The notes beneath the pieces were generated by a model. That model worked only from the letters and a program-made list of their open reading frames with translations, was not told where the DNA came from and ran no database searches. Positions 14,091 to 29,847 of a stretch of DNA of 64,000 bases are shown here, one piece after another. Location: assembly GCA_964418595.1 (NCBI GenBank), contig CAYQMF010000015.1, forward strand, positions 5,756-69,755, given 5' to 3'. Numbering within the stretch: the stretch's first letter is position 1; each line of letters begins with the position of its first letter. The position numbers and the translations under genes are program-made. Source of the DNA: an uncultured candidatus Brocadiaceae bacterium. Its GTDB lineage: Bacteria; Planctomycetota; UBA1135; UBA2386.

Positions 14091-14219
14091 GCTTCCCACC
14101 ACGTCTCGGCATCTCGTCTCCCCCGGGTACGGCGACCTGCGCGGGTTACCGCGTCCCGCCCGCCTGATATGAAGGTCGAGGCGCGCGTTCCTCGGTGCCC
14201 GACTCTCTCCCCGCTGCCC

Positions 14220-17200
14220 ATGCGTGAGACCAATCGCCGGTTCTCCCTTCTCCTCCTGACCCTGCTCCCGCTCACCGCCGGCTGCGGCGGCGGTGGTGGG
14301 AACGCTCCGGGCTTGGGCGCTGGCGGCACCACCGCGGTGCTGGCGGTGGAGTACGGCTCGCTGGTGGACGTGTACGGCTTCCGCCGCACGGCGGCAGGGG
14401 GCTTTGGCACCGCGCTGGTGGCGCAAGACGTGCTCATCGGGGCCGACATCGTGGACGAGCGCGATGGCGCGAATCGCAACAAGCGCGACAACGAGATCCT
14501 CTACGACTTCCTCGCCGCCAACCCCGACAACCTGCAGCCGCGTCTGCTGATCACGCGCGAGATCGGCACCCCCGAGTTCGAGCGCGCGTTCGATGCGCTC
14601 GACGACCGGGTGCGGCGCGTGGGTCCCGGCCGGTTCGGGCAGGACACGACCCAGTCGCCGTTCACCGTGGTTCCGCGCAACGGCGCGATCCGGGTCACGT
14701 TCACGCGCGACCTCGGCATCGACACCTCGTTCTTCTACGAGATGCAGAACGGGCAGATCGTCGGCGTGAAGAACAGCGAGGCGATCCAGGTGCTGCGCAT
14801 CGTCGGCGATCCCAACGACGCGAACACGACGGGGGACTTCGAGGTCATCCCGGCGCGGTTCGTGCCACGCGGTGCACAGCTCATCATCGACCCGGTCCTC
14901 CTCGGCAGCGAGGGCGTCCGGCTGCAGGTGCGGAACCAGGCCGGCGGACTTCCGGAGGCGGCGGACCAGGTCGGGGCCAACATCCGTCTCGCGTTCGCGA
15001 TCGAGGGACCGCTGGGGATCCCGTCGCTGCGGCGCGACGACGAGGCCCAGCTCACCGGGCTCAACAACGGCGGCAGCAAGAGCGTGATCCGCGACTTCCG
15101 CTCCGGCAACTCGCTCGACGACACCGCCGAGATCTCGCGTGGGTTCCGGCGTGACCCGGTGCCGCCGCGCCTCGTCGGCGAGATGTTGATGTACCTGGAG
15201 CGCGTCGAGGATGTGGACGCCTTCACCCAGTTGCTGACCATCTACAAGGGCAGCGTCGCGCATCGGATCGACGCGGGCGACGCGCTGCGCATCGTGAGTG
15301 CCGACGGCTTGGCGACGCAGTTGGCGGTGACGGAGATCGTGGCCGATCCGCGCGATCGCAAGGAGCTCACTCACACGCTCGTGCTGGTGCGCCGTGAGCC
15401 GGCGCTCGCGGCGGCCGACCCGGCGAAGATGCCGGGGTACCCGGCAGATCGGGTCGAGCGTGAACAGTGGTTGCCACAGTTCGCCCCGCGTGCGGTCGTC
15501 GTGGCCGAGTACGAGTCCGGGGACGGTGGTGCCGGCAGCGACGACCCGCAGTACTTCGTGCGCTTCTCGCCATCGCCCATCGCCGGCGCCGGTGGGGCGC
15601 AGGTGCCCAACCGCGACATCTCACCGTTCGCGGCGGTGATCGTCCGGTTCAGCAAGCCGATCGATATCCACTCGGTGCGCGCCCAGGACAGCTTGTTCTT
15701 CGCGACCAAGCCGCTGACCGGCACGCGTGGCGAGGAAGCCATCCAGCAGTTCCTCACCGACAGCGTGATGGATCCTGCGTCGTTCGACCGGAACAAGTTC
15801 GTCACACCCCATCTGGTGGTGGGACGACGCTTCGACGAGGACGGGTCGCAGACGACCGTGCGCCTGCAACCGCCGCTCGGCTTCTACCTGGACGACGAAC
15901 TGCGGCTGCCGCAGAACGAGGCGTTCCGGACCTACTACCTGCACATCCTCGGTGGGCAGAAGGGCATCAAGGACCTCGCCGGCAACGAACTCGACTTCCT
16001 GGCCGATGCCGGCCGCCTGCAGGACTCGATCCTCGTCGACTTCACCCTGGACGTGCGGAACGATGCGCGCGGCCAGCCGCTCTTCCCGAACAACCGGGTC
16101 GTCAACGTCGCGCGCCGCTTCGAGGCGATCGACGAGGACGAGCAGCCGTCCTACTACCGTTCGGACGAGATCCGACGCGTCGGCGGTCAGGCGAACGACA
16201 AGGCCTACCCGCTCGAAGACTTGTTCGGCGCCGTCAACTACTTCGCCGGGCGGATCCACGCGCGGCCCAGTGCGCGCATCTCGCGCGTGGCCGACGACCT
16301 CAACCAGCAGCCGCCGCCGTCGCAGGACAGCGAGTTGCGCTGGTGCCCGGAGTCGGACGGCGGCGAGGCGCAGATCGCCGCGAACACGGCGGGGACCAAG
16401 TTCGGCCAGCCGATCCAGAACCCGCTCAACCCGTACGGTTGTCGTCTCATGACCGTGTGGCGTGAGATCGATCTCAACCTCTCGCGCGTCGACCCGTTCG
16501 ACTTCAACCTCGATCTCGAGGAGGTGCACTGGGCGCCGCACACGAACAGCACGCTGGTGTTCGACGAGTTCGACCGCATGAGCCTCTTCGTGGGGCACTC
16601 GGAGTACCGGGCCGAGAACTGCGTCGGCACCCAGTGGGCGTTGCCGTACGCGATCGAGAGCTCCGGCCTCGACCCCACCTTCGCCAGGAACTTCGCACGC
16701 GACACGGACACCCGCGGCGCACCGGAGCCGGCCGGTCCCCGCAACCCGCCGGAGCACGTTGGCTATCGCGACCACTACGTGGTGATCGACGCGAACCTCG
16801 CGTTCACGGAGCCCAACAACGTCAACCGGTTCCACCCGCTGCCGCCGCTCGAGAAGCCCTACTTCGTATGGCGCGACGAGACCCTGGACGTGCAGGGTGG
16901 CGTGAGCCGGCACAGCGCGGATGTCGCCAACGGCAGCCGTGACTGGGAACCGTACATCATCTCGCCCTTCCTCACCGGCGGCGGCCGCTTCGTGACGCGC
17001 ACCTCCAACGGCCAGTTGAGCTTCAACTACGGCCGCTGGATGAACACGCGGAACTTCCACCTCCGCAGCCGGACGACCGTCGAGACCATCACCGACGGGC
17101 TCGTTGGCGCGATCGCGCTGCCGCTGCTCGGCGACTTCCAGATGTACCCCGACGCGGCGAACTTGCCGGAGGGTCGCGGCTACGTGGCGTCCGGCGCGAA

Positions 17201-18038
17201 CGGCTGGCAGATCGCGCTTACCGTCACGTCGTCGTCGGTGCCGTATTTCCGGGTCTACTCTGCGGGCGGCGTCGCCAACGGCCAGATCCGCCGCGTGACC
17301 CCGGGCTCGTCGCAGTGGAGCCGGGCGAGCGGCGGCATCAATCCGGTCACCGGGCAGCCGACCGCCTTCGGCGACAACTCCTTCTACTGGATCCAGACCG
17401 ACTTCCTGAAGCGGCAGTCGGTGGTGACCGCGGGGTTCGTCGATCTGCTCGACCCGCACCGCGTCGATCCGGCCTTCCCCAACCGTGATCCACGCCTCGG
17501 CCCGTACTTCCCGGCGGGTGCGACGAGCGTGATGCCGCGCGGCACGGCGCCGATGTTCACCACGCTCTTCGAGCCGTCGCTCGACTCGCTGCCGGGCGGG
17601 ACGGAGATCGTGCCGCAGTACCGCGGTGCGAGCATCGTCGACCCGCGGCCGTGGATCGCCGTCGAGTGCGCGTTCCCGTTCTGGACGCGGCGCAACCAGG
17701 TGCGGCCCGACAACCTCAACTTCCCGCTCGATCCGCGCAAGGCGGGGGATGCCGGCATCCGCAAGTACAGCGACCAGTTCAACGCGAGCAACCAGGCGCG
17801 CAACTTCTGGACGCACACCTACAACCTGCACGTCACCGACTACGTGGACGATCCCAATCGTCTGGCGGAGGACGGTTTCCTCGCCAGGTTCGCGGGTCCG
17901 GCCGACTCCTTCCGCGCCAACGAAGTGCGCTACGCCAACTGGCGCTTCATCATGAAGAACAACGTCGAGTCGACGCCGCCGGTGGCACCGAGCCTCGAGT
18001 CGTTCGCGCTGCTGTATCGCTTCCAGGAAACGCGCTGA
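14220..18038 (+). CDS. very large lipoprotein of unknown function (about 1270 aa) with Ig-like (SbsA_Ig/Big-type) segments
   Basis: Lipobox 'LLLLTLLPLTAGCGGGGG' at an internal ATG. Segments such as 'IRVTFTRDLGIDTSFF' and 'VIVRFSKPIDIHSVRAQDSLFFA' resemble bacterial Ig-like domains. Normal composition over 3.8 kb. Confidence 0.7.
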   Translation: MRETNRRFSLLLLTLLPLTAGCGGGGGNAPGLGAGGTTAVLAVEYGSLVDVYGFRRTAAGGFGTALVAQDVLIGADIVDERDGANRNKRDNEILYDFLAANPDNLQPRLLITREIGTPEFERAFDALDDRVRRVGPGRFGQDTTQSPFTVVPRNGAIRVTFTRDLGIDTSFFYEMQNGQIVGVKNSEAIQVLRIVGDPNDANTTGDFEVIPARFVPRGAQLIIDPVLLGSEGVRLQVRNQAGGLPEAADQVGANIRLAFAIEGPLGIPSLRRDDEAQLTGLNNGGSKSVIRDFRSGNSLDDTAEISRGFRRDPVPPRLVGEMLMYLERVEDVDAFTQLLTIYKGSVAHRIDAGDALRIVSADGLATQLAVTEIVADPRDRKELTHTLVLVRREPALAAADPAKMPGYPADRVEREQWLPQFAPRAVVVAEYESGDGGAGSDDPQYFVRFSPSPIAGAGGAQVPNRDISPFAAVIVRFSKPIDIHSVRAQDSLFFATKPLTGTRGEEAIQQFLTDSVMDPASFDRNKFVTPHLVVGRRFDEDGSQTTVRLQPPLGFYLDDELRLPQNEAFRTYYLHILGGQKGIKDLAGNELDFLADAGRLQDSILVDFTLDVRNDARGQPLFPNNRVVNVARRFEAIDEDEQPSYYRSDEIRRVGGQANDKAYPLEDLFGAVNYFAGRIHARPSARISRVADDLNQQPPPSQDSELRWCPESDGGEAQIAANTAGTKFGQPIQNPLNPYGCRLMTVWREIDLNLSRVDPFDFNLDLEEVHWAPHTNSTLVFDEFDRMSLFVGHSEYRAENCVGTQWALPYAIESSGLDPTFARNFARDTDTRGAPEPAGPRNPPEHVGYRDHYVVIDANLAFTEPNNVNRFHPLPPLEKPYFVWRDETLDVQGGVSRHSADVANGSRDWEPYIISPFLTGGGRFVTRTSNGQLSFNYGRWMNTRNFHLRSRTTVETITDGLVGAIALPLLGDFQMYPDAANLPEGRGYVASGANGWQIALTVTSSSVPYFRVYSAGGVANGQIRRVTPGSSQWSRASGGINPVTGQPTAFGDNSFYWIQTDFLKRQSVVTAGFVDLLDPHRVDPAFPNRDPRLGPYFPAGATSVMPRGTAPMFTTLFEPSLDSLPGGTEIVPQYRGASIVDPRPWIAVECAFPFWTRRNQVRPDNLNFPLDPRKAGDAGIRKYSDQFNASNQARNFWTHTYNLHVTDYVDDPNRLAEDGFLARFAGPADSFRANEVRYANWRFIMKNNVESTPPVAPSLESFALLYRFQETR

Positions 18039-18047
18039 CCGACCCGT

Positions 18048-19490
18048 TCAGAAGGGGAGGTCTTCGGCGGCCACGGGCTCCGCGCGCGGCGTGATGCGCT
18101 GGTCGGCAGACCAGGAGTCGAACTCGAGGGCAAACGGATCGCCGAGCAGGCGCCAGCGGCCCGTTGTAGGCTCGTAGACCCCGCCCCAGTCCACGCGCAG
18201 GCCGGGCATGCCGCCGTGGGCCGCCAGGAAGCGCGCGCGGGCGCGGGCGCGCGTCGCCACCGGCGGGACCCACCGTTCGGTCTCGGTGCCGGCGGCCATC
18301 GGTGCGCCGACGCGGTGCTCGATGAGGCCTGACCCGACCATCGTGTCGAACACGCTCGTCGGATCGGTGATCGCGTGGTAGCTGTGGTCGATGAGGGTGA
18401 GCGCACGGAGACGCTGCGCGTCGCCCGGCAGCGTCGCCCAACTGCCGCCCATGTGCGTGAGCACGGAGTCGAACAGGCGCAGCTTGGCGAACGCGTCGAG
18501 CCGCCGGGCGAGCCACGGCTCGTCACCGCGCTGCATGGCGGCGAGGGTGTCCGCCCAGTCCTGCAGGCAGCGCGCGACCCACGGCGGCGCGTCGCGGCGG
18601 CGATCGGCCCACGCCCGCGCGAGGCCGAGGTACAGCGCCTGGATCTCGAGCACGATGCCGTGCACGCGCACCGCTTCGCCCGGGCCAGCGAGGCGACAGC
18701 ACGTGCGCAGGGTCTCCGCCCAGCTTCCGCCCAACGGCAGGCCGAGCCGTGCGCACGCAGCGGCGACCGCGGCCGGCACGCTCGGGTCGGCTTCGAGCGC
18801 GCGCAGCACCAGCGCGGTGGCCCCGTGCTGCAGCGCGAGGTTGAACTGCGATCGATGCCCGTCGCCGACCAGCAGGTGGCAGCGGTGGTAGCTGCGCTTG
18901 CCGGGCGTGTGGTGTTCTTCGCGGGCGGTGCTGAAGACGGCGCGGGCCGCGGTCGTCCCGCCTCCCGCGTCGTGGGTCATGAACAGGGGCCGCGTCGCCG
19001 CGAGCCGTTCGCCGCTGGGGAACAGCACGCCGCCGGAGCCGGCGTAGATGCGCGTGGCGAGGAACGGCAGCATGGCCGCGCCCAGGGTCGCGGCCGGTCG
19101 CGTCAGCAGGTAGTTCTCGTGCGTGCCCCACGTGTGCGCCTGCGGATGCAGGACGCCGTCGTGGTTGTTGGCGTGCAGTGACAGCACCAGACCATCGGCT
19201 GCGAGTTCGCGCACGGCGCGGGCGAGCAGCCCGACCTGCGCTTCGACCAGGAGCGCCAGCTCGTACGGATCGCTGCACTCCAGCGCCGCCAGCTCCGGGT
19301 GATCGTTGACGTCGACGTAGACTCGCCCGTAGGCGTTGAAGAACCCGCGGCCCACGTCCGGGAGCGAAGGCGCGTACGTCGCCATCAGGTCCAGCAGCCG
19401 CCGCAGCGCGGCAGGGCGTGGACCCGCCTGCACGAAGCACATCAGCTCGTGCTCCACACTCAGGAGGAACCTGGATCCGGGATCGGCCAT
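18048..19490 (-). CDS. Pup-ligase/deamidase family protein (PafA/Dop homologue, canonical motifs)
   Basis: Ordered family motifs: 'LLSVEHELMCF' (E-x-E), 'NAYGRVYVDVNDHPELAALEC', 'HTWGTHENYLL', 'LPFLATRIYAGSGGV', 'HRCHLLVGDGH'. Confidence 0.85.
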   Translation of the reverse strand: MADPGSRFLLSVEHELMCFVQAGPRPAALRRLLDLMATYAPSLPDVGRGFFNAYGRVYVDVNDHPELAALECSDPYELALLVEAQVGLLARAVRELAADGLVLSLHANNHDGVLHPQAHTWGTHENYLLTRPAATLGAAMLPFLATRIYAGSGGVLFPSGERLAATRPLFMTHDAGGGTTAARAVFSTAREEHHTPGKRSYHRCHLLVGDGHRSQFNLALQHGATALVLRALEADPSVPAAVAAACARLGLPLGGSWAETLRTCCRLAGPGEAVRVHGIVLEIQALYLGLARAWADRRRDAPPWVARCLQDWADTLAAMQRGDEPWLARRLDAFAKLRLFDSVLTHMGGSWATLPGDAQRLRALTLIDHSYHAITDPTSVFDTMVGSGLIEHRVGAPMAAGTETERWVPPVATRARARARFLAAHGGMPGLRVDWGGVYEPTTGRWRLLGDPFALEFDSWSADQRITPRAEPVAAEDLPF

Positions 19491-19498
19491 GGCTTCGC

Positions 19499-19702
19499 CT
19501 ACTGGCCGCTCGCGTTGCGGCGCGCGTTGAGTTCGCGCTCGACATCGACGCCGCTGACGCAGCGCTCGTGCGCCTGCTGCGCGATGGCATCGAGCGCTCG
19601 CACCTGCCGGAGCAGGCCCCCGGGTACCGGGGGCTCGGGATCGTGGTTGGCGGTCGTCGTCTGGGGACGCCGTTCGGCGCTGCGCTTGCGTTCGTCACTC
19701 AT
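19499..19702 (-). CDS. Pup/UBact-like small modifier (67 aa, C-terminal Gly-Gln)
   Basis: Fills the gap between the two ligase paralogues exactly (8-nt overlap upstream, 8-nt gap downstream). High GC3 codon usage. Polar, probably disordered N-terminus, helical C-half, and terminus '...ELNARRNASGQ*'. Confidence 0.7.
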   Translation of the reverse strand: MSDERKRSAERRPQTTTANHDPEPPVPGGLLRQVRALDAIAQQAHERCVSGVDVERELNARRNASGQ

Positions 19703-21359
19703 GGTGGGTTCCTCGCGTGGGTCGGGTCCGTGGGCTGCAGCAGGTCTCGCTCGGGCGCGACAGCTCGGGCCGGAGATCCTGCAAGGGGTGCGTCGTGTGC
19801 ACGGTGTCGTCCGCGTCGCTCAGGGACGCGAGGTCCATGACCTCGCGGGCGGCACCCAGCGCGTGCTCTGCCACCGCGCGACCGAGCCGGCCGGGGTGCG
19901 GCATGTCGACGCGGAGCCGGCGACCGAATCGCTCGTCGGTCAGGCTCAGCTCGACGTGGTCCCAGTCGACCGCCTCGATGTCGTCGGCGAAGCGCTTGAT
20001 GAGGCGGCCGCGCGTCCAGCTCCGACTCGCCTCCGGCCCATCGCGCAGGCACGCATCGATCTGCGCCCGGTCGATCAGCGGGTCGATGCGATCGTGTTCG
20101 AGCAGGCGCCAGATCGCGCCACGCGTCGGGTCGGTGTTGGTGAAGTCGTGGTCGAGCAGGCGCACGGCCGACGACTCGAGGCCTTCGCCCGTCCGCTCGC
20201 AGTGGCCGAGCAGGACCATGAGCTTGGCGGCCCAGTCGAGGTGGCGCGAGCACGCGGCGATGTCGCCGCGATCGGCGCGCTGCGCCAGCTCGACGATGCG
20301 GGGCAGGAGCTGCGCGGCGCAGGGCGCCACCGCGTCCTGGATCACGCCCTCCTCGACGAGGCGCAGCATCGCCTGCGCGATCTCGGCGACGTAGGCGCCG
20401 AGCGTCACCTGGCGACCGTCGGCGAGCGGCGCCGTCCCGCGCAACCGGCCGGACTCGAGGTCGAGCCCGAGGCTCCACGCACGCAGCGCCTCGACGGGCG
20501 AGGCGAGCAGGAGCTGGCCGTAGCCGACCTCGGCGGCGGCGAGGCAGCACTGCACGAAGCTCGTCATCAGCGCGCTCGAGACGAGGGCGAAGTCGAAGCC
20601 GATGAGGTGCAGCCGGTCGATGCCCTGCGCGTGCGGCTCGCGGCGGGCGTTGAGCAGGCCGCGCGAGAACGCCTCCGTCGTCGACAGCCCGCACACCCGC
20701 GACAGGTGGTGGGCGCGCGCGCTGAGGCTGAAGACCACCGAACCGTCGCGCAGCGGGAGCAGGTAGCCGCTGCCGAAGAACGGGACGGCGGCGGCGATCG
20801 CACTGGTGACGAAGCCGAGCACGCCTGGGTGACGCGGATCGACGATGAGGTCGTCGAAGAGCTGCGGTGCGATCGAGATGTTGAAGTGCGAGCCCCACGA
20901 GATCGACGGATCGAGGAGGTCGACGTTGGCGGCCGTCAGCAGGTAGCGCGTGCCCGCCTCGGCGTCTTCCTGGGCCTGCTGCCGCGCCGCCTCCGCGACG
21001 ACCAGCGTGCTCCAGCTCTGCGCGGCCACTTCGCACGGGCGATGCGTCTCCGCCGTGCACACCTCGACGTGCGCCATGTCGGAGTAGTAGCACTGGCCAT
21101 TCGACGGCCACTGGCGCAGGCAGTCGGTGGAACTCGCCGACGCGTACGACCCGCCCCAGTGGTCGCCCCGGCTCCAGCTCGAATCGCGCCGCGTGCGGCG
21201 TCGCCAGACGTTGCCTCCGACCCGCACGAAGGCCGTGTCGATGGCCCCGAGCACGCGTTGCGCCACGGTCCAGCTCGGGATCGCCTGGCCTCGGCCGTCG
21301 ATGCCGGTCGTCGACAGCTCGCAGTCGCGACCGACGAACTTCACGACGGGCGCGCTCAT
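19695..21359 (-). CDS. Pup-ligase/deamidase family protein (larger, divergent Dop-like paralogue)
   Basis: 'FVGRDCELST', 'NGQCYYSDMAHVEVCTAE', 'ISWGSHFNISI' (in place of HENY), 'VPFFGSGYLL', 'FSLSARAHHLSRVCGLSTTEAFSRGLLNARREPHA', 'DRLHLIGFDF'. Only the last 554 codons of the 802-aa track ORF are protein-like. The ATG overlaps the upstream stop (ATGA). Confidence 0.8.
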   Translation of the reverse strand: MSAPVVKFVGRDCELSTTGIDGRGQAIPSWTVAQRVLGAIDTAFVRVGGNVWRRRTRRDSSWSRGDHWGGSYASASSTDCLRQWPSNGQCYYSDMAHVEVCTAETHRPCEVAAQSWSTLVVAEAARQQAQEDAEAGTRYLLTAANVDLLDPSISWGSHFNISIAPQLFDDLIVDPRHPGVLGFVTSAIAAAVPFFGSGYLLPLRDGSVVFSLSARAHHLSRVCGLSTTEAFSRGLLNARREPHAQGIDRLHLIGFDFALVSSALMTSFVQCCLAAAEVGYGQLLLASPVEALRAWSLGLDLESGRLRGTAPLADGRQVTLGAYVAEIAQAMLRLVEEGVIQDAVAPCAAQLLPRIVELAQRADRGDIAACSRHLDWAAKLMVLLGHCERTGEGLESSAVRLLDHDFTNTDPTRGAIWRLLEHDRIDPLIDRAQIDACLRDGPEASRSWTRGRLIKRFADDIEAVDWDHVELSLTDERFGRRLRVDMPHPGRLGRAVAEHALGAAREVMDLASLSDADDTVHTTHPLQDLRPELSRPSETCCSPRTRPTRGTHHE

Positions 21360-23152
21360 GCGTGTTCTCCCGCTGCACGGTCTCCCACGGCCCGTTCTCC
21401 CACCACAGGCCCGACGAGATCGCGTTGCCAGCCGACTTCGTCGCGCGGCACGGTCTCGACGCGCTGGATGCGGCCGCGGACCCGCAGCAGGCGCTGCAGC
21501 GTGATCCAGTCGGCCTCCATCGCGCTCGCGGCTGCGCAGGCCTGATCGACGAGACCGGCGACGACGTCGTCGAGGCCGACTGCGCCGAAGCCGATGCCGC
21601 TGCGGCGGCGCCGCGCGCCGCGCAGCTTGGCCTGGCTCATCGCTTCGCGGTAGTGCACCGCGGACAGCAGCGTGCCCGCGGTGACGTCGATGCTGCGCTG
21701 CGGCTCGGTGCCGTAGCGCAGCACGACGGTGTCCAGGATGGTCGCAAGCGCGGGCCGCAGGATCGTGGCCTCGAGCACCGCGGGGGCGACGCCGTGGCGC
21801 ACGTCGCCATCGATCAGCCAGGGCACCTCGGCGGGCGCGTACACGGCCATGACCTTCGCCGCGGCCTCGGCGCCGAGCGGCGGCATCTCGAGGACGAGGT
21901 CGCCGAGGCGACCGGGCCGCTTCAGCGCCGGATCGACGGCGTCGGGGCGGTTGGTGAGGCCGAGCCACAGCACATGGGCGCGCGGCGTGGCCTCGGTGCG
22001 GACGAGCCCGTCCAGTTCGACGAGCAGGGCCTGGATCGCGTCGTTGTGCGCGCTGGACAGGAGCTCGCCGCCGTCGTGGCCCCCGGCACGCCGACCGAGG
22101 CAATCAATTTCGTCCATGACCACGATTTGGACGATGGGGCGCGTGCGCGGCACCGCCTGGCGCGCGCGGATGCTCCCGCACAGGTCTTCGCGCACGAGGC
22201 GCGCATCCTCGCCGTGCCACATCGACTTGAGCTCGTTGGGCTTGACCACGTAGAGCACGACGTCGAAGCCGCGCGTCGCACCGACGTCGCGCAGCCACGT
22301 GGCGACGAGACGCGTGAGCAGGGTCTTGCCCTCACCGGGCTTGAGCGACCACAGCAGCACGCCGTGCAGGGGTTCGAGGGCGAACTCGCCGCGGACGTCG
22401 TCCGCGAGGAGCCGCAACTCGATGGCCTCGAGCAGCGGTTCGAGCACGGGCTCGAGGCCGGCGACGTCCTCGGCGTCGACGGCGACGGAATCGATGCCGA
22501 CCTCGAAGCGGCTGTTGCTGCTGATGCTCGCCGCGCGCGCGATGGCCCAACCGGGCGCCTCACGGCTGAGGACGAGCCGGTCGCCGGGCCGCAGTGGTTC
22601 GTCGCGAAGGCACCGTGCGATCTGCACGATGTCTTCCTGCCCACCGACGCGGGCGACATGCACCTGCTCGCGCCCATCCGCATGCCAGCCGCGCATCTCG
22701 ACGACTTCGCCCAGGGCCCGCGCGCGCGCGCCGGCGTCGTCGGCGACGCCGATCAGCACCTGCTCCTTGGTGTGCACGCGCACCGGCTCCCAGGGTTCGA
22801 GGTCGCGGAGGCGGGCGATGTCGACTTCCGGGTGGATCGCGAGTTCGAGCACGTCGCCGCGCCAGCGCACCCGGGCGGCCGGGCCCTGCGGCGTGGTCAG
22901 CAAGCCCTCGCACACGCACAGCGCCGCCGGTCCGCGGAGCATGCCCTCGAGGATCTCGCGCATCTCCTTCGCCGCGGCCGCGGCCTGTTCGCACTCACGC
23001 CGGGCGCGCAGCCACCGCGCCGCGACGGTGACCGGATCCTGCGCGGCCTCCTGGAGGACGGTCTCGATCTCCTGGATCTGCGCGGGCGTCACGCGATCGA
23101 GGCGCACGCCGGCGAGGCGCAGGAGTTGGACGATGGTCTGTTGGTTGCTCAT
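21356..23152 (-). CDS. AAA+ ATPase, proteasomal-ATPase (Mpa/ARC/PAN)-like architecture
   Basis: N-terminal helical/coiled-coil region 'RECEQAAAAAKEMREILEGML'. Two OB-like segments ('ARVRWRGDVLELAIHPEV..', 'GEVVEMRGWHADGREQVHVARVGGQEDIVQIA..PLRPGDRLVL'). Walker A variant 'LKPGEGKTLL', Walker B 'IVVMDEID', 'KRPGRLGD'. Confidence 0.85.
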   Translation of the reverse strand: MSNQQTIVQLLRLAGVRLDRVTPAQIQEIETVLQEAAQDPVTVAARWLRARRECEQAAAAAKEMREILEGMLRGPAALCVCEGLLTTPQGPAARVRWRGDVLELAIHPEVDIARLRDLEPWEPVRVHTKEQVLIGVADDAGARARALGEVVEMRGWHADGREQVHVARVGGQEDIVQIARCLRDEPLRPGDRLVLSREAPGWAIARAASISSNSRFEVGIDSVAVDAEDVAGLEPVLEPLLEAIELRLLADDVRGEFALEPLHGVLLWSLKPGEGKTLLTRLVATWLRDVGATRGFDVVLYVVKPNELKSMWHGEDARLVREDLCGSIRARQAVPRTRPIVQIVVMDEIDCLGRRAGGHDGGELLSSAHNDAIQALLVELDGLVRTEATPRAHVLWLGLTNRPDAVDPALKRPGRLGDLVLEMPPLGAEAAAKVMAVYAPAEVPWLIDGDVRHGVAPAVLEATILRPALATILDTVVLRYGTEPQRSIDVTAGTLLSAVHYREAMSQAKLRGARRRRSGIGFGAVGLDDVVAGLVDQACAAASAMEADWITLQRLLRVRGRIQRVETVPRDEVGWQRDLVGPVVGERAVGDRAAGEHA

Positions 23153-23175: not shown

Positions 23176-24201
23176 TCAGTCGGAGAAGCTCAGCCAGGGG
23201 ATCGAGGCCATGCGTCCGCCGCGCCACGCATGCACGGCGAGCACGGGACGTCTGCCGGGTGCGCCGAAGCGGCGGCCGGCGATGGGGAACACGGTGGTCT
23301 TGCTCGGGAACATGGCCTCGAGCACCTGGTAGTCGTCGAGCGACACGTGCTCGCAGCTCGGCAGTGCGCACTCGGCCTTCTGGTTGCAGTTGCCGCAGTC
23401 CTTGCCCCATCCGTGGCTGTGGAACACGGTGAGCGGCCGCTCGCCGCGGCCACGCAGCGCGGCCAGCTCGCCGGCTTCGGCCATTGCCTCGGGGTCGAAC
23501 TGGAGGCTGGCGAACGATCCGACGTGTCGGGTGTCGCCGAGCGCCTCCGACAAGACGGTGACGATGCGGGTGCGCGTGCCCGGCAGCGGTTCGCTCAGCC
23601 GCAGGAGCGTGCCCAGCACGCAGCCACCGATCTCCGCCGAGCCGGCGGCCTCGGTGCGATCGACGATGTCAGCGACGGCCCGGGCGCACATGAGCACCGG
23701 GCGGTCCGCGGCGAGTCCGCCGTCGCCGAGCGAGACGACCCCGAGGTCCTGTAGCGTGCCGTCGCGCACCAGCAGCGGCAGCAGGCGGGGCGGACGGGGC
23801 GTTGCCGGACCGGGCGTGGCGGTGAGCACCGTGTGCACGCGCTGGCCGGCCGACACTTGGATCTGCCGCGCCTGCAGCATCGTCGACATGCGGCGATCCC
23901 AGCGACCGGCGTCGAAGCGCTGCGCGTGCTCCGCACCGCTCGCCGCCGTCACGGTCACGTCGAGGCCGAGCACGCGCTCGCCCGCCGCAGAGACCGGTTC
24001 GATGGCGATGCGCACCGGCTCGGGCTCGGTGGGCAGCACATCGGCGAGGACGCCGCTGGTCCAGGCCTCTTCGGCGACGTCGGTGATGTCGTCGGTCACC
24101 GGGAACCAGGCCAGCGCCTCGCCCCCGGTCGCCTCGGTGCGCAGCTCCACGGCGAACTGGTGGCGGCAGGACAGCTCGACCTCGACGGCGATGGCGCTCA
24201 T
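23176..24201 (-). CDS. JAB/MPN (JAMM) metallopeptidase domain protein with N-terminal unknown domain
   Basis: JAMM elements in order: 'AEIGGCVLG' (Glu), 'TVFHSHGW' (HxH), 'VSLDDYQ' (S..D). A Cys-rich insert 'CGNCNQKAECALPSCEH' lies between them. The ATG overlaps the Ubl stop (ATGA). Confidence 0.8.
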   Translation of the reverse strand: MSAIAVEVELSCRHQFAVELRTEATGGEALAWFPVTDDITDVAEEAWTSGVLADVLPTEPEPVRIAIEPVSAAGERVLGLDVTVTAASGAEHAQRFDAGRWDRRMSTMLQARQIQVSAGQRVHTVLTATPGPATPRPPRLLPLLVRDGTLQDLGVVSLGDGGLAADRPVLMCARAVADIVDRTEAAGSAEIGGCVLGTLLRLSEPLPGTRTRIVTVLSEALGDTRHVGSFASLQFDPEAMAEAGELAALRGRGERPLTVFHSHGWGKDCGNCNQKAECALPSCEHVSLDDYQVLEAMFPSKTTVFPIAGRRFGAPGRRPVLAVHAWRGGRMASIPWLSFSD

Positions 24202-24461
24202 GGCCTTCCCGCCGAGACCTCCGGCAGGACGGTCCAGCGCGCGTCGTCCGCGGGGACCTCGTGCAGCAGGCTCTTGTTGTCGAGGCGGCGGCCGCGGCTG
24301 AAGGCCAGCCAGCGCAGGCCGTGGTCGGGGATGTCGAGCTCGCTGCGGAAGAACTCGATCGCCTGGCCGACGGTGTGGTCGGGCGTGAGGTCGTCGCCGA
24401 CGACGGCGCGCACGCGCTTCTGCTGGCTGAGGTCGGTCATCTCGATGGTGGCGGTGGTCAT
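24198..24461 (-). CDS. ubiquitin-like (beta-grasp) small protein, 87 aa
   Basis: The size, its position between the E2 side and JAB, and a C-terminal half 'LAFSRGRRLDNKSLLHEVPADDARWTVLPEVSAG-RP' that aligns ungapped by eye with ubiquitin '[34 protein letters not shown]'. Confidence 0.6.
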   Translation of the reverse strand: MTTATIEMTDLSQQKRVRAVVGDDLTPDHTVGQAIEFFRSELDIPDHGLRWLAFSRGRRLDNKSLLHEVPADDARWTVLPEVSAGRP

Positions 24462-25270
24462 GACGTTGCGTCTCCTTGGTTGGGGTCGTGGTGGATCGGC
24501 GCGTGGCCGAGGATGGCACGCGCGTACCGCGCGCGGAGATCCGCGTCTCCGCACAGCAACTGCAGCGAGGGCGCGGCGTGCTGGGCGAAGGCGGCGATGG
24601 CGCGCACCGTGCGCGCCAGGAAGGCGGGGGTGACGTCGAGCGCGTCGAGGCGAGCCTCGGCGTGCAGCTCGTGGCCGTGCCGGTCGCTCGCCTGCAGGGC
24701 GAGGCGCGCGAAGCGCACGCGGCCGTTGACGCGCAGCGCCTGGTCGGCCGCGGCGTCGCGGGCGGCGTCGGTCGGCCACGACGTGATCAGCCGGTGGGTG
24801 AGGCGGAGGCCGGTGCCGTCGGGATCGATCGTCACCGGCCGCACGAGACCGTCCAGGCTCACCCGCACCTCGACGCCGCGCGCACGGGCCGCGATCGCGT
24901 CCGGTTCGAACCGGCCGGCGCGCAGCAGGGCCCCGAGCGCATCGGGGTCGCAGCTCGTGGCGGCGCCGGTGTCGGCAGTGAGGGGACGCGCACTCGCGGC
25001 GACCGCGAGCGCGTCCACGAGCGTCTCGGCGCGGCCGCGCGGACCCGGCGGCAGGTCGGCCACGATCCAATGGCTCGCGGTGAACGCGGCGACGCGCGCG
25101 TTCCCGGGCAGGCAGGCGGTGTGCAGGAGCAGCGACGTCGGATCCGGGCCCGGCATGCCGCGCGGATCGAGGGCGAGTTCGATCGCGTACCCGCCATCGA
25201 GCGTCGGCGTGATGCGCGGCCCCGGCGCATGACGACGGCGCCGCGGCGTGCTGACGGTGGGGGTGGTCAC
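24458..25270 (-). CDS. hypothetical protein (270 aa), possible YbjN/CesT-chaperone-like C-terminal half
   Basis: GTG start overlaps the E2 stop (GTGA) and its stop overlaps the Ubl ATG (ATGA). Normal composition. The pattern 'ALRVNGRVRFARLALQASDRHGHELHAEARLDALDVTPAFLARTVRAIAAFAQ' resembles chaperone-like alpha/beta folds (weak, by eye). Confidence 0.55.
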   Translation of the reverse strand: MTTPTVSTPRRRRHAPGPRITPTLDGGYAIELALDPRGMPGPDPTSLLLHTACLPGNARVAAFTASHWIVADLPPGPRGRAETLVDALAVAASARPLTADTGAATSCDPDALGALLRAGRFEPDAIAARARGVEVRVSLDGLVRPVTIDPDGTGLRLTHRLITSWPTDAARDAAADQALRVNGRVRFARLALQASDRHGHELHAEARLDALDVTPAFLARTVRAIAAFAQHAAPSLQLLCGDADLRARYARAILGHAPIHHDPNQGDATS

Positions 25271-25857
25271 GCGGCCCCCTTGCCCCACAGGGGCGTGGCG
25301 GCCGGCAGCGCGGCGAGGGCTTCGCGGCCTTCGGCGAACCACTCCGCCGCGTCGTGATCGGCGGGGTCGACGGTGCTGACGTTGGCGTAGGTGAGGATCG
25401 AATAGATGTGCTCGAGGAGCGTGGTCAGCTGCATCGGGCCGCGCGGCAGCGCCCCCAGGCACAGGATCCCGAACAGGCGCGAGTAGTTGGGGTGCAGGAG
25501 CCCGGTGTCCCTCCCGATCAGCACGCACACCGACGGCTGGTCGAGGCCGGCCTCGAACGGATCGGCGCGGTAGACGATGGTGCCGCGCAGGGGACCTGCG
25601 GCGACGTCGACGCCTTCGCCGGGGCGGTGCTGGCGCAGGTAGGGGATCGCGAGCGTGAAGTCGAGGACACGCCGTGCGGGCAGGTGCGGCTCGATGCGCA
25701 GCTTCGGCGCGCCGCTGAGCAGCGGCTGGGCCGCGTCCCAGTTGCCCGCGAAGAACTCGGCAGCGAGCTGGGTGATGGGCGCGTCGGCTTCGGTGGACGG
25801 CTCCAGGAGAGAGAGCCGCCGCAGGAGGTCGGCGAGGTCGGGCGTCTGGTCGGTCAT
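25267..25857 (-). CDS. E2 (UBC-fold) ubiquitin-conjugating-enzyme-like protein
   Basis: 'DTGLLHPNYSRLFGILCLGALPRG' carries the HPN triad, with a Cys 9 residues after the Asn as in eukaryotic E2s. The ATG overlaps the E1 stop (ATGA). Confidence 0.7.
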   Translation of the reverse strand: MTDQTPDLADLLRRLSLLEPSTEADAPITQLAAEFFAGNWDAAQPLLSGAPKLRIEPHLPARRVLDFTLAIPYLRQHRPGEGVDVAAGPLRGTIVYRADPFEAGLDQPSVCVLIGRDTGLLHPNYSRLFGILCLGALPRGPMQLTTLLEHIYSILTYANVSTVDPADHDAAEWFAEGREALAALPAATPLWGKGAA

Positions 25858-27080
25858 TCGAGAAGGCCTCGTTGGGCAAAGGGCGTGTGCGCAGGGCGGA
25901 GCAGGAGATCGGTGCGCGTTGCGCCGGCGCGGGCGACGACCAGGGCGCCGTCGGGGATGCCGAGCGCGGCGAGGGGCGCATCGAGGATCCGCAGGTGCGC
26001 CGCTTGCGCGGCGCCGATCGACGCGAGCAGGGCGTCGCGCCGCCAGTACATCGCTCGGCCGCAGCGCGGGCAGGCCGGCGGGGTCGACCACACGCACGCG
26101 GGCTGCACGACACCGCTGCCGCAGGAGCAGGCGGCAGCCAGCGCCAGCGGAGCGGCGAGCGGAGTCAGGGTCGGGTCCGGCGCGCGCAGGAGGTCGCGCG
26201 CCTTGGCGAACAACCCGCGCAGGGTGATCTCCGCCGTGGTCGACGCGAGCGCGACCGCGGTGATCGGCGCATGGTCGCCGAGGCAACGGGCGCTGCGCGC
26301 CAGCGCGAGCGTGTGCAGCACGCCGCCGGTGAGGTCGAGGAGGGTCTCGTGGTCGAGCGCCCGCTCGCGGTCGCGGCCGCCGACCAACCGTTGCGCCTGC
26401 AGCAGACCGAGGCCGACGACGGCCAGCGTCGTCGCCATGCCGGCCAGCGTCGGCGCGCGGCCTTCCGCGCCATCGTCGGCGCGGCCGCCGGGACAAGGCG
26501 TCGGTGGTCCGCCGACGAGGTCTTCGACGCCGTACGAGCAGAGCTGGCAGGCGTGGCCGCCCCCGCCGTGCGACACGAGGACGCGGCCCATCTCGCGCGT
26601 ACCCGTGCCATCGACGGCCAGCCGGACCAGCGGGATCGCGGCGGCGTTGGAGATCGACGTCAGGTGCCGAGCGAGGCCGCCGGCGTCGGTGCAGTCCACG
26701 ATCAGATCGCAGGCGGCGAGCACGCCGTAGCCGACGCCACGCACGTCGATCGGGAGCGCGAAGGCCCGGCCGGGCTCGATCGCGTCGCACGCGTCGACCA
26801 CGGCGTCGACCTTGCGGCGTCCCACCGCCGCGATGGGGACGGCCTGTGTGCCGACGTTGTGGGCCTCGACCCGATCCGCATCGATCGCGAGCACCACCGC
26901 GCCGCTGCGCACGACCGCCAGCGCGAAGTGCGAGCCCAGCGCCCCGGCGCCGATGATCGCGATGCGTGCCGTGCGCCAGCGAGCGAACGGATCGCCCGTG
27001 AGCAGTGAGGTGCCACGCACCCGCGCCAGGCGGTCGCTCGCGGGTGCGGCCACGGGCATGGCGTGCAGCTCAGCGCGCAT
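25854..27080 (-). CDS. ThiF/MoeB/E1-like adenylyltransferase (ubiquitin-activating-enzyme-like)
   Basis: 'ARIAIIGAGALGSHFALAVVRSGAVVLAIDADRVEAHNVGTQ' (Rossmann GxGxxG plus DxD..N), 'DLIVDCTD', and Cys pairs 'CQLC' and 'CPRC'. The ATG at 27080 overlaps the upstream stop by 11 nt (alternative ATG at 27059). Confidence 0.85.
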   Translation of the reverse strand: MRAELHAMPVAAPASDRLARVRGTSLLTGDPFARWRTARIAIIGAGALGSHFALAVVRSGAVVLAIDADRVEAHNVGTQAVPIAAVGRRKVDAVVDACDAIEPGRAFALPIDVRGVGYGVLAACDLIVDCTDAGGLARHLTSISNAAAIPLVRLAVDGTGTREMGRVLVSHGGGGHACQLCSYGVEDLVGGPPTPCPGGRADDGAEGRAPTLAGMATTLAVVGLGLLQAQRLVGGRDRERALDHETLLDLTGGVLHTLALARSARCLGDHAPITAVALASTTAEITLRGLFAKARDLLRAPDPTLTPLAAPLALAAACSCGSGVVQPACVWSTPPACPRCGRAMYWRRDALLASIGAAQAAHLRILDAPLAALGIPDGALVVARAGATRTDLLLRPAHTPFAQRGLLE

Positions 27081-27663
27081 CGCGGCCCTCCTTCGCCATC
27101 GCCAGCAACTCGGCGAGGCGCGGGCCACCGCGGCGTGCCGGCGGGCGCCAGCGACGGGCGCGCGGGTCGAACCCGCACTGGTGGCAACGCAAGGTCGGCC
27201 GCCACGCGGTGCGCTTGAACATGCCCGCGCACGGCGTCGTCGGCGTGCCGGGGCAGACCACGATCGGCTCGCCCGCGGCGAGTCGCGTCCGCGTGCGCAG
27301 GCAACGCTGGTCGTCGCCGTGCTGCGCCGGATCGTAGGTCGTCTCCACGGGTTCCGTGTCGGCCGAGACCCACGTCGGGTGGCCGCCCATGTCGATGCGA
27401 TCGCCGTGCCGCAGGACGTGCAGCCCGATGCCCGCCGGCGTGCCGTTGATCGTCACGCCGCCGCCGAGGTCAGCCGGCACGAGGAGCGCACCGACGGTGC
27501 GCCCGCGGCGGGCGGCGAACACGGTCGCGTGGTGCGCCGCGTCCTGCGGGTCTTGGACCGCGACGCCGGTGGCGGCGATACCGACGATGCGACCGACGAC
27601 CTGCTCCGTGCCGCCGTCGCCGTACCAGAGCGTGACCTGCGTGATCGGAGTTTGCGGGTTCAT
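27070..27663 (-). CDS. FHA-domain protein with C-terminal Cys-rich zinc-ribbon-like segment
   Basis: FHA-like 'VVGR...AAHHATVFAARRG...LLVPADLGGGVTINGTP...HVLRHGDRIDMGG'. C-terminal 'CLRTRTRLAAGEPIVVCPGTPTTPCAGMFKRTAWRPTLRCHQCGF'. The ATG overlaps the upstream stop (ATGA). Confidence 0.65.
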   Translation of the reverse strand: MNPQTPITQVTLWYGDGGTEQVVGRIVGIAATGVAVQDPQDAAHHATVFAARRGRTVGALLVPADLGGGVTINGTPAGIGLHVLRHGDRIDMGGHPTWVSADTEPVETTYDPAQHGDDQRCLRTRTRLAAGEPIVVCPGTPTTPCAGMFKRTAWRPTLRCHQCGFDPRARRWRPPARRGGPRLAELLAMAKEGRDAR

Positions 27664-28259: not shown

Positions 28260-28512
28260 GCGCGAGCAACCTGTCGACCGGGTGCGGATGGCATTCGGCG
28301 CTGAATACGCGCTCTCGCTTCGCGGCCTTACGCGGTGCGTGAGCGCGGCTCGCGTTCAGTGTGGAAAGCCGCAGACTCGCGGGGAGTCACGCGGCGCGAG
28401 GGGGGAGCGGAGTCGGCGCGCGGTGTCCATGATGTCGATCCGCGGTCATGCTCCCCCTCGGCGCATCGAAGGCCGCAACCGTCACCGTTCCTCCTTCCAA
28501 GGACTCGCACCC
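28260..28512. promoter_or_regulatory. divergent intergenic region between the Ubl/Pup operon and the SorC-type regulator gene
   Basis: 253-nt non-coding gap flanked by divergently oriented start codons. Promoters for both units must lie here, but I could not identify specific boxes confidently. Confidence 0.4.
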
Positions 28513-29697: not shown

Positions 29698-29847
29698 GGC
29701 CGAGGCTCATGGGCCGCGAGGTTTTTCGAGATCGGATTGGATGATCGGCCTCCTGACGGCGCTATGGCGCCGGCACGATTGCGCGGGGCTTCCCCGACGC
29801 CTCGCAGGCACCTAGGATCGGCCACCCCTCGTTCCAGGAAGGACAGC

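Follow-up and report, generated by a model that had tools for sequence, protein, structure and literature searches.

Pupylation is known from Actinobacteria and the UBact system from a few Gram-negative phyla, and the Pup and UBact tags alike are seen as leading to the proteasome. The locus described here raises the question of what a 67-residue protein ending in Gly-Gln might be when its gene is wedged between two members of the Pup_ligase family, in a 64,000-nucleotide stretch of DNA (the window) from an uncultured candidatus Brocadiaceae bacterium. The reading that we favor, at a probability of roughly 0.6, is that this protein is a conjugatable and largely disordered tag, Pup- or UBact-like in its action, representing a third sequence family, one not yet cataloged. 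Four adjacent genes frame the question:

21356..23152, minus strand: Mpa/PAN-like AAA ATPase, comprising an N-terminal helix, an OB-like region and a single AAA module.
19695..21359, minus strand: Lig1, 554 aa, Dop-like Pup_ligase-family enzyme, a candidate deamidase and de-tagging enzyme.
19499..19702, minus strand: the tag gene, 67 aa, ending in RRNASGQ, with residues 1-26 predicted to be disordered and 27-65 helical.
18048..19490, minus strand: Lig2, 480 aa, PafA-like Pup_ligase-family enzyme, a candidate ligase.

The tag gene is real and conserved, to a degree far beyond chance. The 67 residues and TAG stop quoted in the first-pass annotation are exactly the translation of the minus-strand ORF at 19499..19702. 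The TGA of Lig1 (19697-19695) and the ATG of the tag (19702-19700) together make up the 8-nt overlap string ATGAGTGA, and eight bases (19491-19498) separate the stop codon of the tag from the ATG of Lig2 (19490). Although the frame of Lig2 is open across the tag ORF, none of ATG, GTG or TTG occurs in that frame there, and an upstream start for Lig2 is hence impossible. The GC content of the tag ORF at the three codon positions (0.79/0.52/0.85) is the coding pattern of the window (70.9% GC), and a Shine-Dalgarno-like GAGGA is found 7 nt 5' of the ATG. Coordinates, overlap, gap and GC pattern thus all bear out the original observation that the ORF fills the space between two ligase paralogs. The identity of these neighbors was likewise correctly called, with both matching the Pfam Pup_ligase model PF03136 (E = 4.5e-45 for Lig1 and 3e-49 for Lig2); in the window, and in all loci of sufficient length, both flanks of the tag are PF03136 genes. 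A G[QE] ending is seen in only three of the 795 ORFs of the window (stop-to-stop, 30 aa or longer).

A word-indexed protein search with the 67-residue tag returned only the self-match. Homologs were recovered by a full HMMER scan of 1.84 billion representatives, which yielded nine further proteins, of which eight have Q as the last residue and one has E. A tag-family HMM additionally detected a small ORF directly 5' of the Lig2 homolog in 35 of 37 related loci, the 36 matching ORFs from these loci having E-values of 1e-5 to 1e-23. The last residue of these 36 is Gln in 30 and Glu in six, with no other residue observed, so that all 45 homologs (36 from loci and nine from the database) end in Q or E. 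The loci come from Planctomycetota, Gemmatimonadota and one MAG labeled Chloroflexia. Across seven close pairs, substitutions in the tag fall mostly at the third codon position (48/42/122 for positions one to three). The notion that the ORF is a chance product of GC-rich intergenic DNA, to which the abundance of spurious ORFs in high-GC genomes and the unnamed status of the protein in the NCBI set might lend some appeal, is refuted by these conservation data and has a negligible probability: sequence, position, orientation and terminal residue are kept in 36 homologs from at least two phyla, and the third-position substitution bias, the coding GC pattern and a ribosome-binding site are all found.

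The tag family is characterized by a tail of the pattern R-R-N-x-[SP]-G-[QE]. Its endings (n=36) are SGQ in 21 members, PGQ in seven, PGE in three, SGE in two, and SAE, PAQ and GGQ in one each; in terms of frequencies the tail reads R (62%), N (86%), R/G/T, S (55%) or P (39%), G (88%), Q (81%) or E (19%). The tag of the window carries an A at position -4. The family also has a near-invariant Cys that the Pup and UBact sets examined lack. An AF2 model of the tag, computed with a 10-sequence alignment, shows residues 1-26 without secondary structure (pLDDT ~53) and residues 27-65 as a helix (pLDDT 85-93). The tag is thus predicted to combine a disordered N-terminus with a helical C-terminal half. 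The first-pass description of a Pup-style small protein is supported insofar as the protein is genuine and conserved, has a predicted disordered N-terminus and helical C-terminal half, ends in G-Q/E and is encoded between Dop-like and PafA-like enzymes.

Judged by its sequence, the upstream enzyme Lig1 is Dop-like. It scores 131.6 bits with the Dop model TIGR03688 versus 85.4 with that of PafA, and among solved structures in the PDB it reaches 96 bits with Dop versus 37 with PafA; since its score is well under the equivalog cut-off of 492, it is best described as Dop-like and no equivalog. The Dop loop is inserted between the GhExE strand and that of the catalytic Asp, and the spacer measured at this point has a median of 70 residues in the Lig1 family, which is of Dop-loop length (79 residues in Dop versus 42 in PafA). 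The catalytic Y92, D94, H97 and E99, along with most of the phosphate-binding Arg residues, are kept in Lig1 and strongly conserved across phyla. The HEN motif, invariant in Dop and PafA, has Leu or Phe in place of its Glu throughout the Lig1 family, and two otherwise invariant Arg have been lost, one being replaced by Ala and the other in an N-R pair that has become A-L. These replacements make the activity of Lig1 uncertain. Lig1 is kept also in loci whose tag already ends in Glu, as would be expected if it also acts in de-tagging. The proposal in the first-pass annotation that a pair of paralogs fits a tag in need of deamidation is in keeping with the Dop-like paralog found here; the deamidation itself we infer.

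The downstream enzyme Lig2 appears to be PafA-like, although the Dop-versus-PafA call is weak by scores alone: it obtains 119.1 bits with the PafA model (TIGR03686) versus 114.4 with Dop, and 93.4 bits with Dop versus 90.1 with PafA among the solved structures. It has no Dop loop, its spacer being 43 residues versus 42 in PafA, and retains nearly all the residues invariant in Dop and PafA, including the catalytic ones. Bifidobacterium PafA proteins score on average 86 bits with Lig2 as the query versus 7 with Lig1. Many relatives of Lig2 bear a C-terminal TPR domain. Behind the catalytic Asp, the Lig2 of the window has an extra residue of the PafA type; it was dropped as a PafA signature, being found in only nine of 33 homologs, and the Asp-His spacing is Dop-like in the other 24 of the 33. 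Lig1 and Lig2 are strongly diverged from each other, with no significant BLASTP match between them. Both are also distant from the known enzymes: they are 22-26% identical to the Dop/PafA of UBact systems and just 22-24% to those of Actinobacteria, while the UBact-system and actinobacterial enzymes are 33-36% identical to one another. A crude neighbor-joining tree computed without the UBact-system enzymes placed Lig1 next to Dop and Lig2 next to PafA. Adding the UBact-system enzymes broke this topology, and the tree is therefore not relied upon.

These features bear on the possibility that the small protein is indeed a tag, with Lig1 as a catalytically dead, tag-binding paralog (a receptor or chaperone) and Lig2 alone either deamidating and ligating the tag or ligating it undeamidated. 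Such a division of labor would accommodate the missing HEN Glu and the two missing Arg of Lig1, the equal nearness of Lig2 to Dop and PafA by score and the Dop-like Asp-His spacing in most Lig2 homologs. We nevertheless consider it quite improbable, given that Lig1 has its catalytic Asp, Tyr, His-x-Glu and most phosphate-binding Arg conserved across phyla and persists where the tag ends in Glu.

The likeness of the tag to Pup is extensive in its general features: about 60-70 residues, a disordered N-terminus, a helical C-terminal half, Gly followed by Gln or Glu at the end, and a gene placed between Dop-like and PafA-like enzymes, 3' of an Mpa-like AAA ATPase. The differences lie in the tail (F-V-Q-K-G-G-[QE] in Pup versus the R-R-N pattern here, with GGQ in only one of 36), in the near-invariant Cys of the tag family and in its sharing of an operon with an E1-E2-Ubl-JAB module. 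With UBact, which is reported from Nitrospirota, Verrucomicrobiota, Armatimonadota and others, the family has in common the occurrence of a Pup-like tag outside Actinobacteria, a resemblance in the terminal hexapeptide (R-[QN]-[R/x]-[ST]-G-[EQ]) and a gene directly 3' of a Dop-like gene and an Mpa-like AAA; however, UBact loci have prcB and prcA between the tag and pafA, whereas here Lig2 follows the tag after 8 nt. Pup has been described with this architecture of a disordered N-terminus and a helical C-terminal half (PMC2588565).

The UBact tail had been correctly given in the first-pass annotation: it is R-Q-R-[TS]-G-[EQ] in 89 real UBact sequences. The accompanying claim that the tail studied here is nearer to UBact than to the K-G-G-[QE] of Pup also held, with a profile similarity over the right-justified last six residues of z = 4.9 for tag versus UBact and 3.5 for tag versus Pup. 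The likeness to UBact is confined to these six residues, and the tails of all three have [QN]-[KR]-x-G-[QE] in common. The terminal residue is E in 52% and Q in 48% of the Pup control set, and E in 56% and Q in 44% of the UBact set.

Beyond the tail, the assignment as a UBact-type modifier did not survive. The search with Pup and UBact profiles that had been suggested as a check was run with 13 members of the tag family against PF05639, TIGR03687, PF20513 and NF033388 (Pfam and NCBIfam) and gave no match at E <= 10; as positive controls, M. tuberculosis Pup matches TIGR03687 at 4e-21 and the UBact consensus matches NF033388 at 1e-16. Profile-profile comparison by hhalign was not significant either with Pup (probability 0.2%) or with the 89 real UBact sequences (1.6%). 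Membership in the Pup or UBact families is thus rejected by both the curated profiles and hhalign, and the distant enzymes and the proteasome-free loci (see below) also count against the UBact assignment. Pup and UBact themselves also fail to match each other in the same profile-profile test.

The AAA gene overlaps the start of Lig1 in an ATGA. Its product matches PF00004 (E = 1e-13) and, weakly, Prot_ATP_ID_OB_C (7e-4 and 19.8 bits, under the Pfam cut-off of 23). Its alignments in the PDB span residues 65-445 for Mpa (7px9) and residues 160-435 for PAN, with the D2 domains of Cdc48 and VAT giving the top scores. The order AAA(Mpa-like)-Dop-like-tag-PafA-like equals arc-dop-pup-pafA minus the proteasome genes, and the same holds relative to the UBact locus order Mpa-Dop-UBact-PrcB-PrcA-PafA. 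It also parallels the order in the proteasome-less Bifidobacterium, which is dop, one further gene, pup and pafA. A Thermoplasma beta-subunit probe matched neither the window nor any of 38 related loci, and proteasome genes are absent from the gene lists of the related loci L001, L003 and L005; in the UBact loci L086 and L087, PF00227 comes directly after the tag.

It could still be argued that the tag has simply diverged within the UBact (or Pup) family and feeds a 20S proteasome whose genes lie outside this locus. The UBact-like terminal hexapeptide, the alignment of the AAA protein to Mpa and PAN with its weak proteasomal-ATPase OB match, and the naming of small proteins of Plesiocystis and Rhodopirellula as 'Pup orthologs' (PMC2588565) are all compatible with this. 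We regard it as unlikely on four counts: the curated Pup and UBact models remain unmatched while their positive controls pass, and hhalign is not significant; Lig1 and Lig2 lie at a greater distance from the UBact-system and actinobacterial enzymes than separates these two groups; no proteasome gene was found in ~38 loci, whereas in UBact loci it directly follows the tag; and the AAA protein lacks a tail of the QYL type, with which Mpa ends.

The named 'Pup orthologs' were predicted by Iyer, Burroughs and Aravind in 2008 in a deltaproteobacterium (Plesiocystis) and a planctomycete (Rhodopirellula), as proteins of 50-90 aa with a G[EQ] end, encoded beside two PafA paralogs and unlinked to proteasome genes (PMC2588565). 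They and our tag family may be one and the same. The ligases of that study were reported with a 4-TM insertion and a membrane-protein neighbor (PMC2588565). The insertion was not reproduced on Lig1 or Lig2: Lig1 has just two borderline hydrophobic stretches, both aligning to the Dop core. A further difference is that PMC2588565 mentions neither a JAB nor an E1-like enzyme.

Such genes are present here: a ten-gene operon that includes an E1-E2-Ubl-JAB module has the Lig1-tag-Lig2 trio at its 3' end. This context was overlooked in the first-pass annotation. The six genes directly 5' of the AAA gene, translationally coupled, are:

23176..24201, minus strand: JAB/JAMM metalloprotease-like protein, 341 aa, with a weak Prok-JAB match (2e-3).
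24198..24461, minus strand: putative Ubl, 87 aa, ending ...PEVSAG-RP.
24458..25270, minus strand: TY-Chap1-like (YbjN/T3SS-chaperone-like) protein, ~270 aa (E = 0.018, under the cut-off).
25267..25857, minus strand: E2-like protein, 196 aa, in which an H-x-N ... C motif is invariant.
25854..27080, minus strand: E1-like ThiF-family adenylating enzyme, ~408 aa (PF00899 at 5e-16).
27070..27663, minus strand: FHA-like, Cys-rich (zinc-ribbon-like) protein, 197 aa, with a weak FHA match (0.029).

The full set of ten is found together in 23 related loci. The FHA-like gene is the first conserved gene of the cassette, with its position and Cys pairs conserved, and the position of the TY-Chap1-like gene is conserved in most cassettes. 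The E1-like protein has conserved GxGxxG and Cys pairs and matches the PADLOC E1-E2 models at 2e-12. The E2-like protein has no Pfam match; its H122, N124 and C133 are conserved in 21 homologs. Similarly, the E..HxH..S..D motif of the JAB-like protein is invariant in 27 homologs. The C-terminus of the putative Ubl, W-T-V-[ML]-P-E-V-S-A-G, is conserved in 23 homologs, being either the end of the protein or followed by a short variable extension. A PDB profile search and a Pfam scan of the Ubl gave only sub-threshold ubiquitin/SUMO-like matches, and its single-sequence AF2 model (pLDDT 52) was too low in confidence for a fold search; we infer a beta-grasp fold for this protein. No cassette protein looks membrane-bound.

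This half of the operon resembles the known E1-E2-Ubl-JAB operons (Iyer et al. 2006, PMC1779556) and the Bil-type defense operons (PMC10557695) in its ThiF-type E1, its E2 with H-x-N...C, its JAMM/JAB peptidase and a small protein whose Ala-Gly may or may not carry an extension. It differs from them in that the literature checked on these operons mentions no Pup, PafA or AAA ATPase, and we found no description of a combined Pup-like and E1-E2-Ubl-JAB cassette in the literature searched. A reading of the cassette as a defense system was considered and is unsupported: the PADLOC matches are to generic E1 models only and viral contigs contain no relatives.

If the 67-residue protein is a tag of the kind that we propose, its action would follow three steps. 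The C-terminal Gln67 would be converted to Glu through deamidation by Lig1, which probably also strips the tag from its targets. Lig2, using ATP, would then activate the gamma-carboxylate of Glu67 and join the tag to lysine side chains of target proteins, and the C-terminal TPR domain seen in many of its relatives could recruit substrates. Finally, the Mpa/PAN-like AAA protein would engage the helical part of the tag and unfold or remodel the tagged protein.

An alternative is that the small protein is never attached to other proteins. In that case it might serve as a scaffold or as a precursor peptide, with the two GS-fold enzymes modifying its C-terminal Gln/Glu (by ligation to a small amine, for example), or it might act non-covalently, regulating the ligases or the AAA protein or serving as their adaptor. 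The carboxylate-amine ligase superfamily's products are mostly small-molecule amides (PMC2588565), which along with the near-invariant Cys lacking a Pup or UBact counterpart and the altered metal-site motif of Lig1 would fit such a role. We hold it to be unlikely, as Lig1 and Lig2 belong specifically to the Dop/PafA family and not to GCS2, the Q/E alternation at the terminus and the disordered-plus-helical architecture fit protein tagging, and so do the adjoining Mpa-like unfoldase and the dop-pup-pafA-like gene order.

Returning to the conjugated tag as the preferred reading, its relationship to the rest of the operon can be sketched tentatively. It is possible, though doubtful, that the ten genes specify one pathway with two unrelated tags, a putative Ubl ending in -SAG handled by the E1, E2 and JAB and a tag ending in -SGQ handled by the Dop-like and PafA-like enzymes, and that both tags lead to the same Mpa/Cdc48-like unfoldase, with no proteasome involved. 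Sequential or hybrid tagging, cross-regulation, or an unrecognized stress or anti-phage system are possibilities for what such a pathway might do. In it, the near-invariant Cys of the tag might be the site at which the thioester-based E1/E2 module communicates with the tag.

These observations would add a third family of Gln/Glu-terminated tags, from Planctomycetota, Gemmatimonadota and the organism of the window itself. Lig1 and Lig2 would be relatives of Dop and PafA more diverged than any studied so far, without linked proteasome genes, and would serve as an outgroup pair for the Dop/PafA divergence: in one study planctomycete proteins were taken as a 'single-copy' outgroup (PMC7947786), whereas this locus has two very different copies. 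The locus would also offer a natural test of Pup-type tagging apart from proteasomal degradation, and, if its two modules do cooperate, would bring two convergently evolved tagging chemistries together within one bacterial pathway.

The tag, a 67-aa small protein, and the two enzymes flanking it, Lig1 upstream and Lig2 downstream, are the last three genes of a ten-gene operon on the minus strand, the cassette, with the 5'->3' order: FHA-like Cys-rich protein, E1, E2-like protein, TY-Chap1-like protein, an 87-aa protein, JAB peptidase, AAA ATPase, Lig1, tag and Lig2. Consecutive genes are joined by 4-nt ATGA/GTGA overlaps or by overlaps of 8-11 nt, with short intergenic gaps only at the JAB-AAA and tag-Lig2 junctions.

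Features of the cassette
23176-28259, minus strand: complete E1, E2, putative Ubl and JAB/JAMM module with the FHA-like and chaperone-like genes, translationally coupled to AAA-Lig1-tag-Lig2
Gene 2, minus strand: E1, ThiF-type
Gene 3, minus strand: E2-like protein, invariant H-x-N...C motif
Gene 4, minus strand: chaperone-like protein, weakly TY-Chap1-like
Gene 5, minus strand: putative Ubl, 87 aa, ending PEVSAG-RP
Gene 6, minus strand: JAB/JAMM peptidase, invariant E..HxH..S..D motif
19695-21359, minus strand: Lig1, 554 aa, Pup_ligase PF03136, Dop-like
19499-19702, minus strand: tag gene, 67 codons and TAG, product MSDERKRSAERRPQTTTANHDPEPPVPGGLLRQVRALDAIAQQAHERCVSGVDVERELNARRNASGQ
18048-19490, minus strand: Lig2, 480 aa, Pup_ligase PF03136

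The first-pass annotation had placed a modifier gene between two ligase paralogues: its location and sequence for the ORF are exact, both neighbors match Pup_ligase, the TGA of the upstream gene and the tag ATG overlap as claimed (within ATGAGTGA), and 8 nt separate the tag stop from the Lig2 ATG at 19490. This trio stands, but the ten-gene operon with its E1-E2-Ubl-JAB half had been missed. The Lig2 reading frame is open across the tag ORF but has no start codon there; hence, an unannotated N-terminal extension of Lig2 does not account for the space. A GAGGA motif lies 7 nt 5' of the tag ATG, GC per codon position is 0.79/0.52/0.85 (window GC 70.9%), and 3 of 795 ORFs in the window end in G[QE]. 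Seven pairs of tag genes with 70-89% DNA identity together show 48/42/122 differences at first/second/third codon positions, implying purifying selection on this frame. The tag ORF is almost certainly a real protein-coding gene.

A word-indexed search with the tag protein returned no relatives, only the tag itself as an unnamed NCBI entry. With HMMER run over all 1.84 billion representatives, nine homologues of 65-71 aa were recovered, all ending R-[RHK]-N-x-S-[GA]-[QE]. Homologues of Lig2, named 'PafA2 family' at NCBI and 40-56% identical to it, come from Planctomycetota, Gemmatimonadota and one MAG labelled Chloroflexia; in 35 of 37 such loci a small ORF detected by the tag-family HMM (36 ORFs; E = 1e-5 to 1e-23) lies directly 5' on the same strand. 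Of these ORFs, 30 terminate in Q and 6 in E, with the endings SGQ (21), PGQ (7), PGE (3), SGE (2), SAE (1), PAQ (1) and GGQ (1). One locus, L024, has a tandem pair of tag genes (9313-9669, ending RRNGPGQ; 9749-9958, ending RRNEPGQ) 5' of a single Lig2 homologue. The tag also has a cysteine, C48, in an HExC motif. It is invariant in the 10 database homologues and shared by at least 90% of sequences in the wider alignment, and no Pup or UBact sequence examined has an equivalent; a role in cross-talk with the thioester-based E1/E2 module is speculative.

The earlier reading made the tag a member of the UBact family. In profile searches, 13 tag-family members gave no match at E <= 10 to the Pup models PF05639 (Pfam) and TIGR03687 (NCBIfam) or the UBact models PF20513 (Pfam) and NF033388 (NCBIfam), the positive controls being M. 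tuberculosis Pup (4e-21) and a UBact consensus (1e-16). Using hhalign, the 47-sequence tag family showed no significant similarity to 89 real UBact proteins or to 42 real Pup proteins encoded at Bifidobacterium and Actinomyces loci; the Pup and UBact sets were likewise not significantly similar to each other, so that absent profile similarity cannot separate 'Pup-like' from 'not Pup-like'. In right-justified comparison, the tails are: R90-R62-N86-[R/G/T]-[S/P]-G88-[Q81/E19] in the tag family; Y-R-Q-R-[T/S]-G-[E56/Q44] in UBact, as the first-pass annotation had correctly given it; and F-V-Q-K-G-G-[E52/Q48] in Pup, with [QN]-[KR]-x-G-[QE] common to all three. Against column-shuffled nulls, the last six tag-family residues score z = 4.9 versus UBact and z = 3.5 versus Pup. 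The likeness to UBact appears real, but limited to the tail. AF2 prediction from a 10-sequence alignment gives a disordered N-terminus (residues 1-26) and a helical region (27-65, pLDDT 85-93), a layout that fits the Pup architecture described in PMC2588565. What survives is the kind of protein, a Pup/UBact-like tag that ends in Gln and has a Dop-like enzyme as partner; the family membership does not.

BLASTP of Lig1 against Lig2 is not significant despite their common PF03136 membership, the two being strongly diverged. By sequence, Lig1 is Dop-like: it scores 131.6 bits with the NCBIfam Dop model versus 85.4 with PafA, and 96 versus 37 bits against the respective solved structures; it aligns to Dop without gaps around the catalytic strand (NGQCYYSDMAHVE versus NGARLYVDHAHPE); and the median length in the family of the spacer from the GhExE strand to the catalytic Tyr is 70 residues, versus 79 in Dop and 42 in PafA. 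Lig2 has a short, PafA-type spacer (43 residues), keeps nearly all residues invariant across both Dop and PafA, and as a query scores Bifidobacterium PafA proteins at 86 bits on average (7 with Lig1); the Dop and PafA models score it about equally, and only 9 of 33 homologues have the additional residue that follows the catalytic Asp in PafA. In the Lig1 family the Glu of the invariant HEN motif is replaced by Leu/Phe and two invariant Arg are lost (residues 158-160, A191, 258-259); Y92, D94 (the catalytic Asp), H97, E99 and most phosphate-binding Arg are kept. Members of this family may use metal or nucleotide differently, or may be pseudo-enzymes. Identity of both enzymes to their actinobacterial or UBact-system counterparts is only 22-26%, against 33-36% between those two groups; this fits the earlier use of Planctomycetes enzymes as an outgroup (PMC7947786), reported as single-copy there, in contrast to the two very different copies here. 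In a crude NJ tree Lig1 grouped with Dop and Lig2 with PafA, a topology lost once UBact-system enzymes were added. About a third of Lig2 homologues (~775 aa; L011, L014, L015, L017, L020, L022, L023, L025, L026, L027, L030, L034) have a C-terminal extension of ~300 aa, annotated as TPR repeats in some sources and absent from the window Lig2, which could be a substrate- or partner-recruitment domain.

The Ubl C-terminus reads W-T-V-[ML]-P-E-V-S-A-G in 23 homologues, either as the exact end or with a short variable extension, as in ubiquitin-like precursors that a JAB peptidase trims; the Ubl is a putative β-grasp protein. The AAA ATPase can be aligned with PAN and, over residues 65-445, with Mpa; its proteasomal OB match is sub-threshold, and its top AAA-module scores are to Cdc48/VAT.

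By tblastn, 23 related loci of Planctomycetota and Gemmatimonadota carry the ten-gene set in this order (every gene detected in 20; the chaperone-like gene below threshold in three); in most others a contig end cuts the cassette, and two lack it although upstream DNA is present. On the Longimicrobiales chromosome OZ252253.1 (L005/L007, 5491-8324) an IS110-family transposase separates Lig1 from a shortened AAA gene (317 aa), and the genes from E1 to JAB are absent; with Lig1, tag and Lig2 remaining, this is a decayed or reduced cassette. No proteasome genes are in the gene lists of three loci (L001, L003, L005), nor did a Thermoplasma β-subunit probe match in the window or 38 loci. Viral contigs yielded no relatives, and E1 alone matched PADLOC. 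Window flanks are ordinary chromosomal genes, e.g. ribosomal protein S4 and a DEAD-box helicase, and the window, L001, L003 and L005 do not share the same flanking genes; hence, the cassette apparently moves as one block.

Several neighbors deserve mention. A ~190-aa ORF (27660-28259, minus strand; coding-like GC 0.71/0.56/0.88), its stop overlapping the FHA-like gene start (ATGA), gave no tblastn match among the related loci, so the operon may here start with a lineage-specific gene. The divergent gene at 28240-29697 (plus strand), encoding a SorC-like regulator with HTH and sugar-binding domains, is conserved only beside the two closest cassettes (L003, 47% identity; L006, 36%) and is possibly a local regulator. 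A 1289-aa ORF (14169-18038, plus strand; GC3 0.91, a strong coding signal), convergent on Lig2, has no Pfam match and was not found beside other cassettes. At 29698-32835 (plus strand) a ~1030-aa protein combines a long N-terminal region without Pfam match with a C-terminal FGE-sulfatase (formylglycine-generating-enzyme-like) domain. A few kb 3' of the L003 cassette (14962-15812) are a nucleotidyltransferase/HepT-like (MNT-HEPN) toxin-antitoxin pair and an AAA_14/DUF4143 gene.

UBact loci have the order Mpa-Dop-UBact-Proteasome-(alpha)-PafA, whereas the cassette loci searched yielded no proteasome gene; proteasome-less Bifidobacterium loci read dop, one further gene, pup, pafA. 'Pup orthologs' ending in G[EQ] in Plesiocystis and Rhodopirellula, adjoining two PafA paralogues without proteasome linkage (Iyer, Burroughs and Aravind, 2008; PMC2588565), may, compared by description only, be the same family as the tag; the 4-TM insertion and membrane-protein neighbor described there do not fit Lig1 and Lig2. 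The literature searched, partial in coverage, makes no mention of a Pup-ligase module joined to E1-E2-Ubl-JAB, and an earlier description is possible.

We propose a conjugated-tag model, which as a whole we hold at a probability of about 0.6: Lig1 would deamidate the tag Gln67 to Glu and probably also remove the tag from targets; Lig2 with ATP would activate the γ-carboxylate of this Glu and ligate it to lysines; and the AAA ATPase would engage the helical region of the tag. Loci encoding a tag with a terminal Glu nonetheless keep Lig1, just as actinobacteria whose Pup ends in Glu keep Dop. The main interest lies in the cassette itself: a conserved dual-tag, proteasome-less operon.
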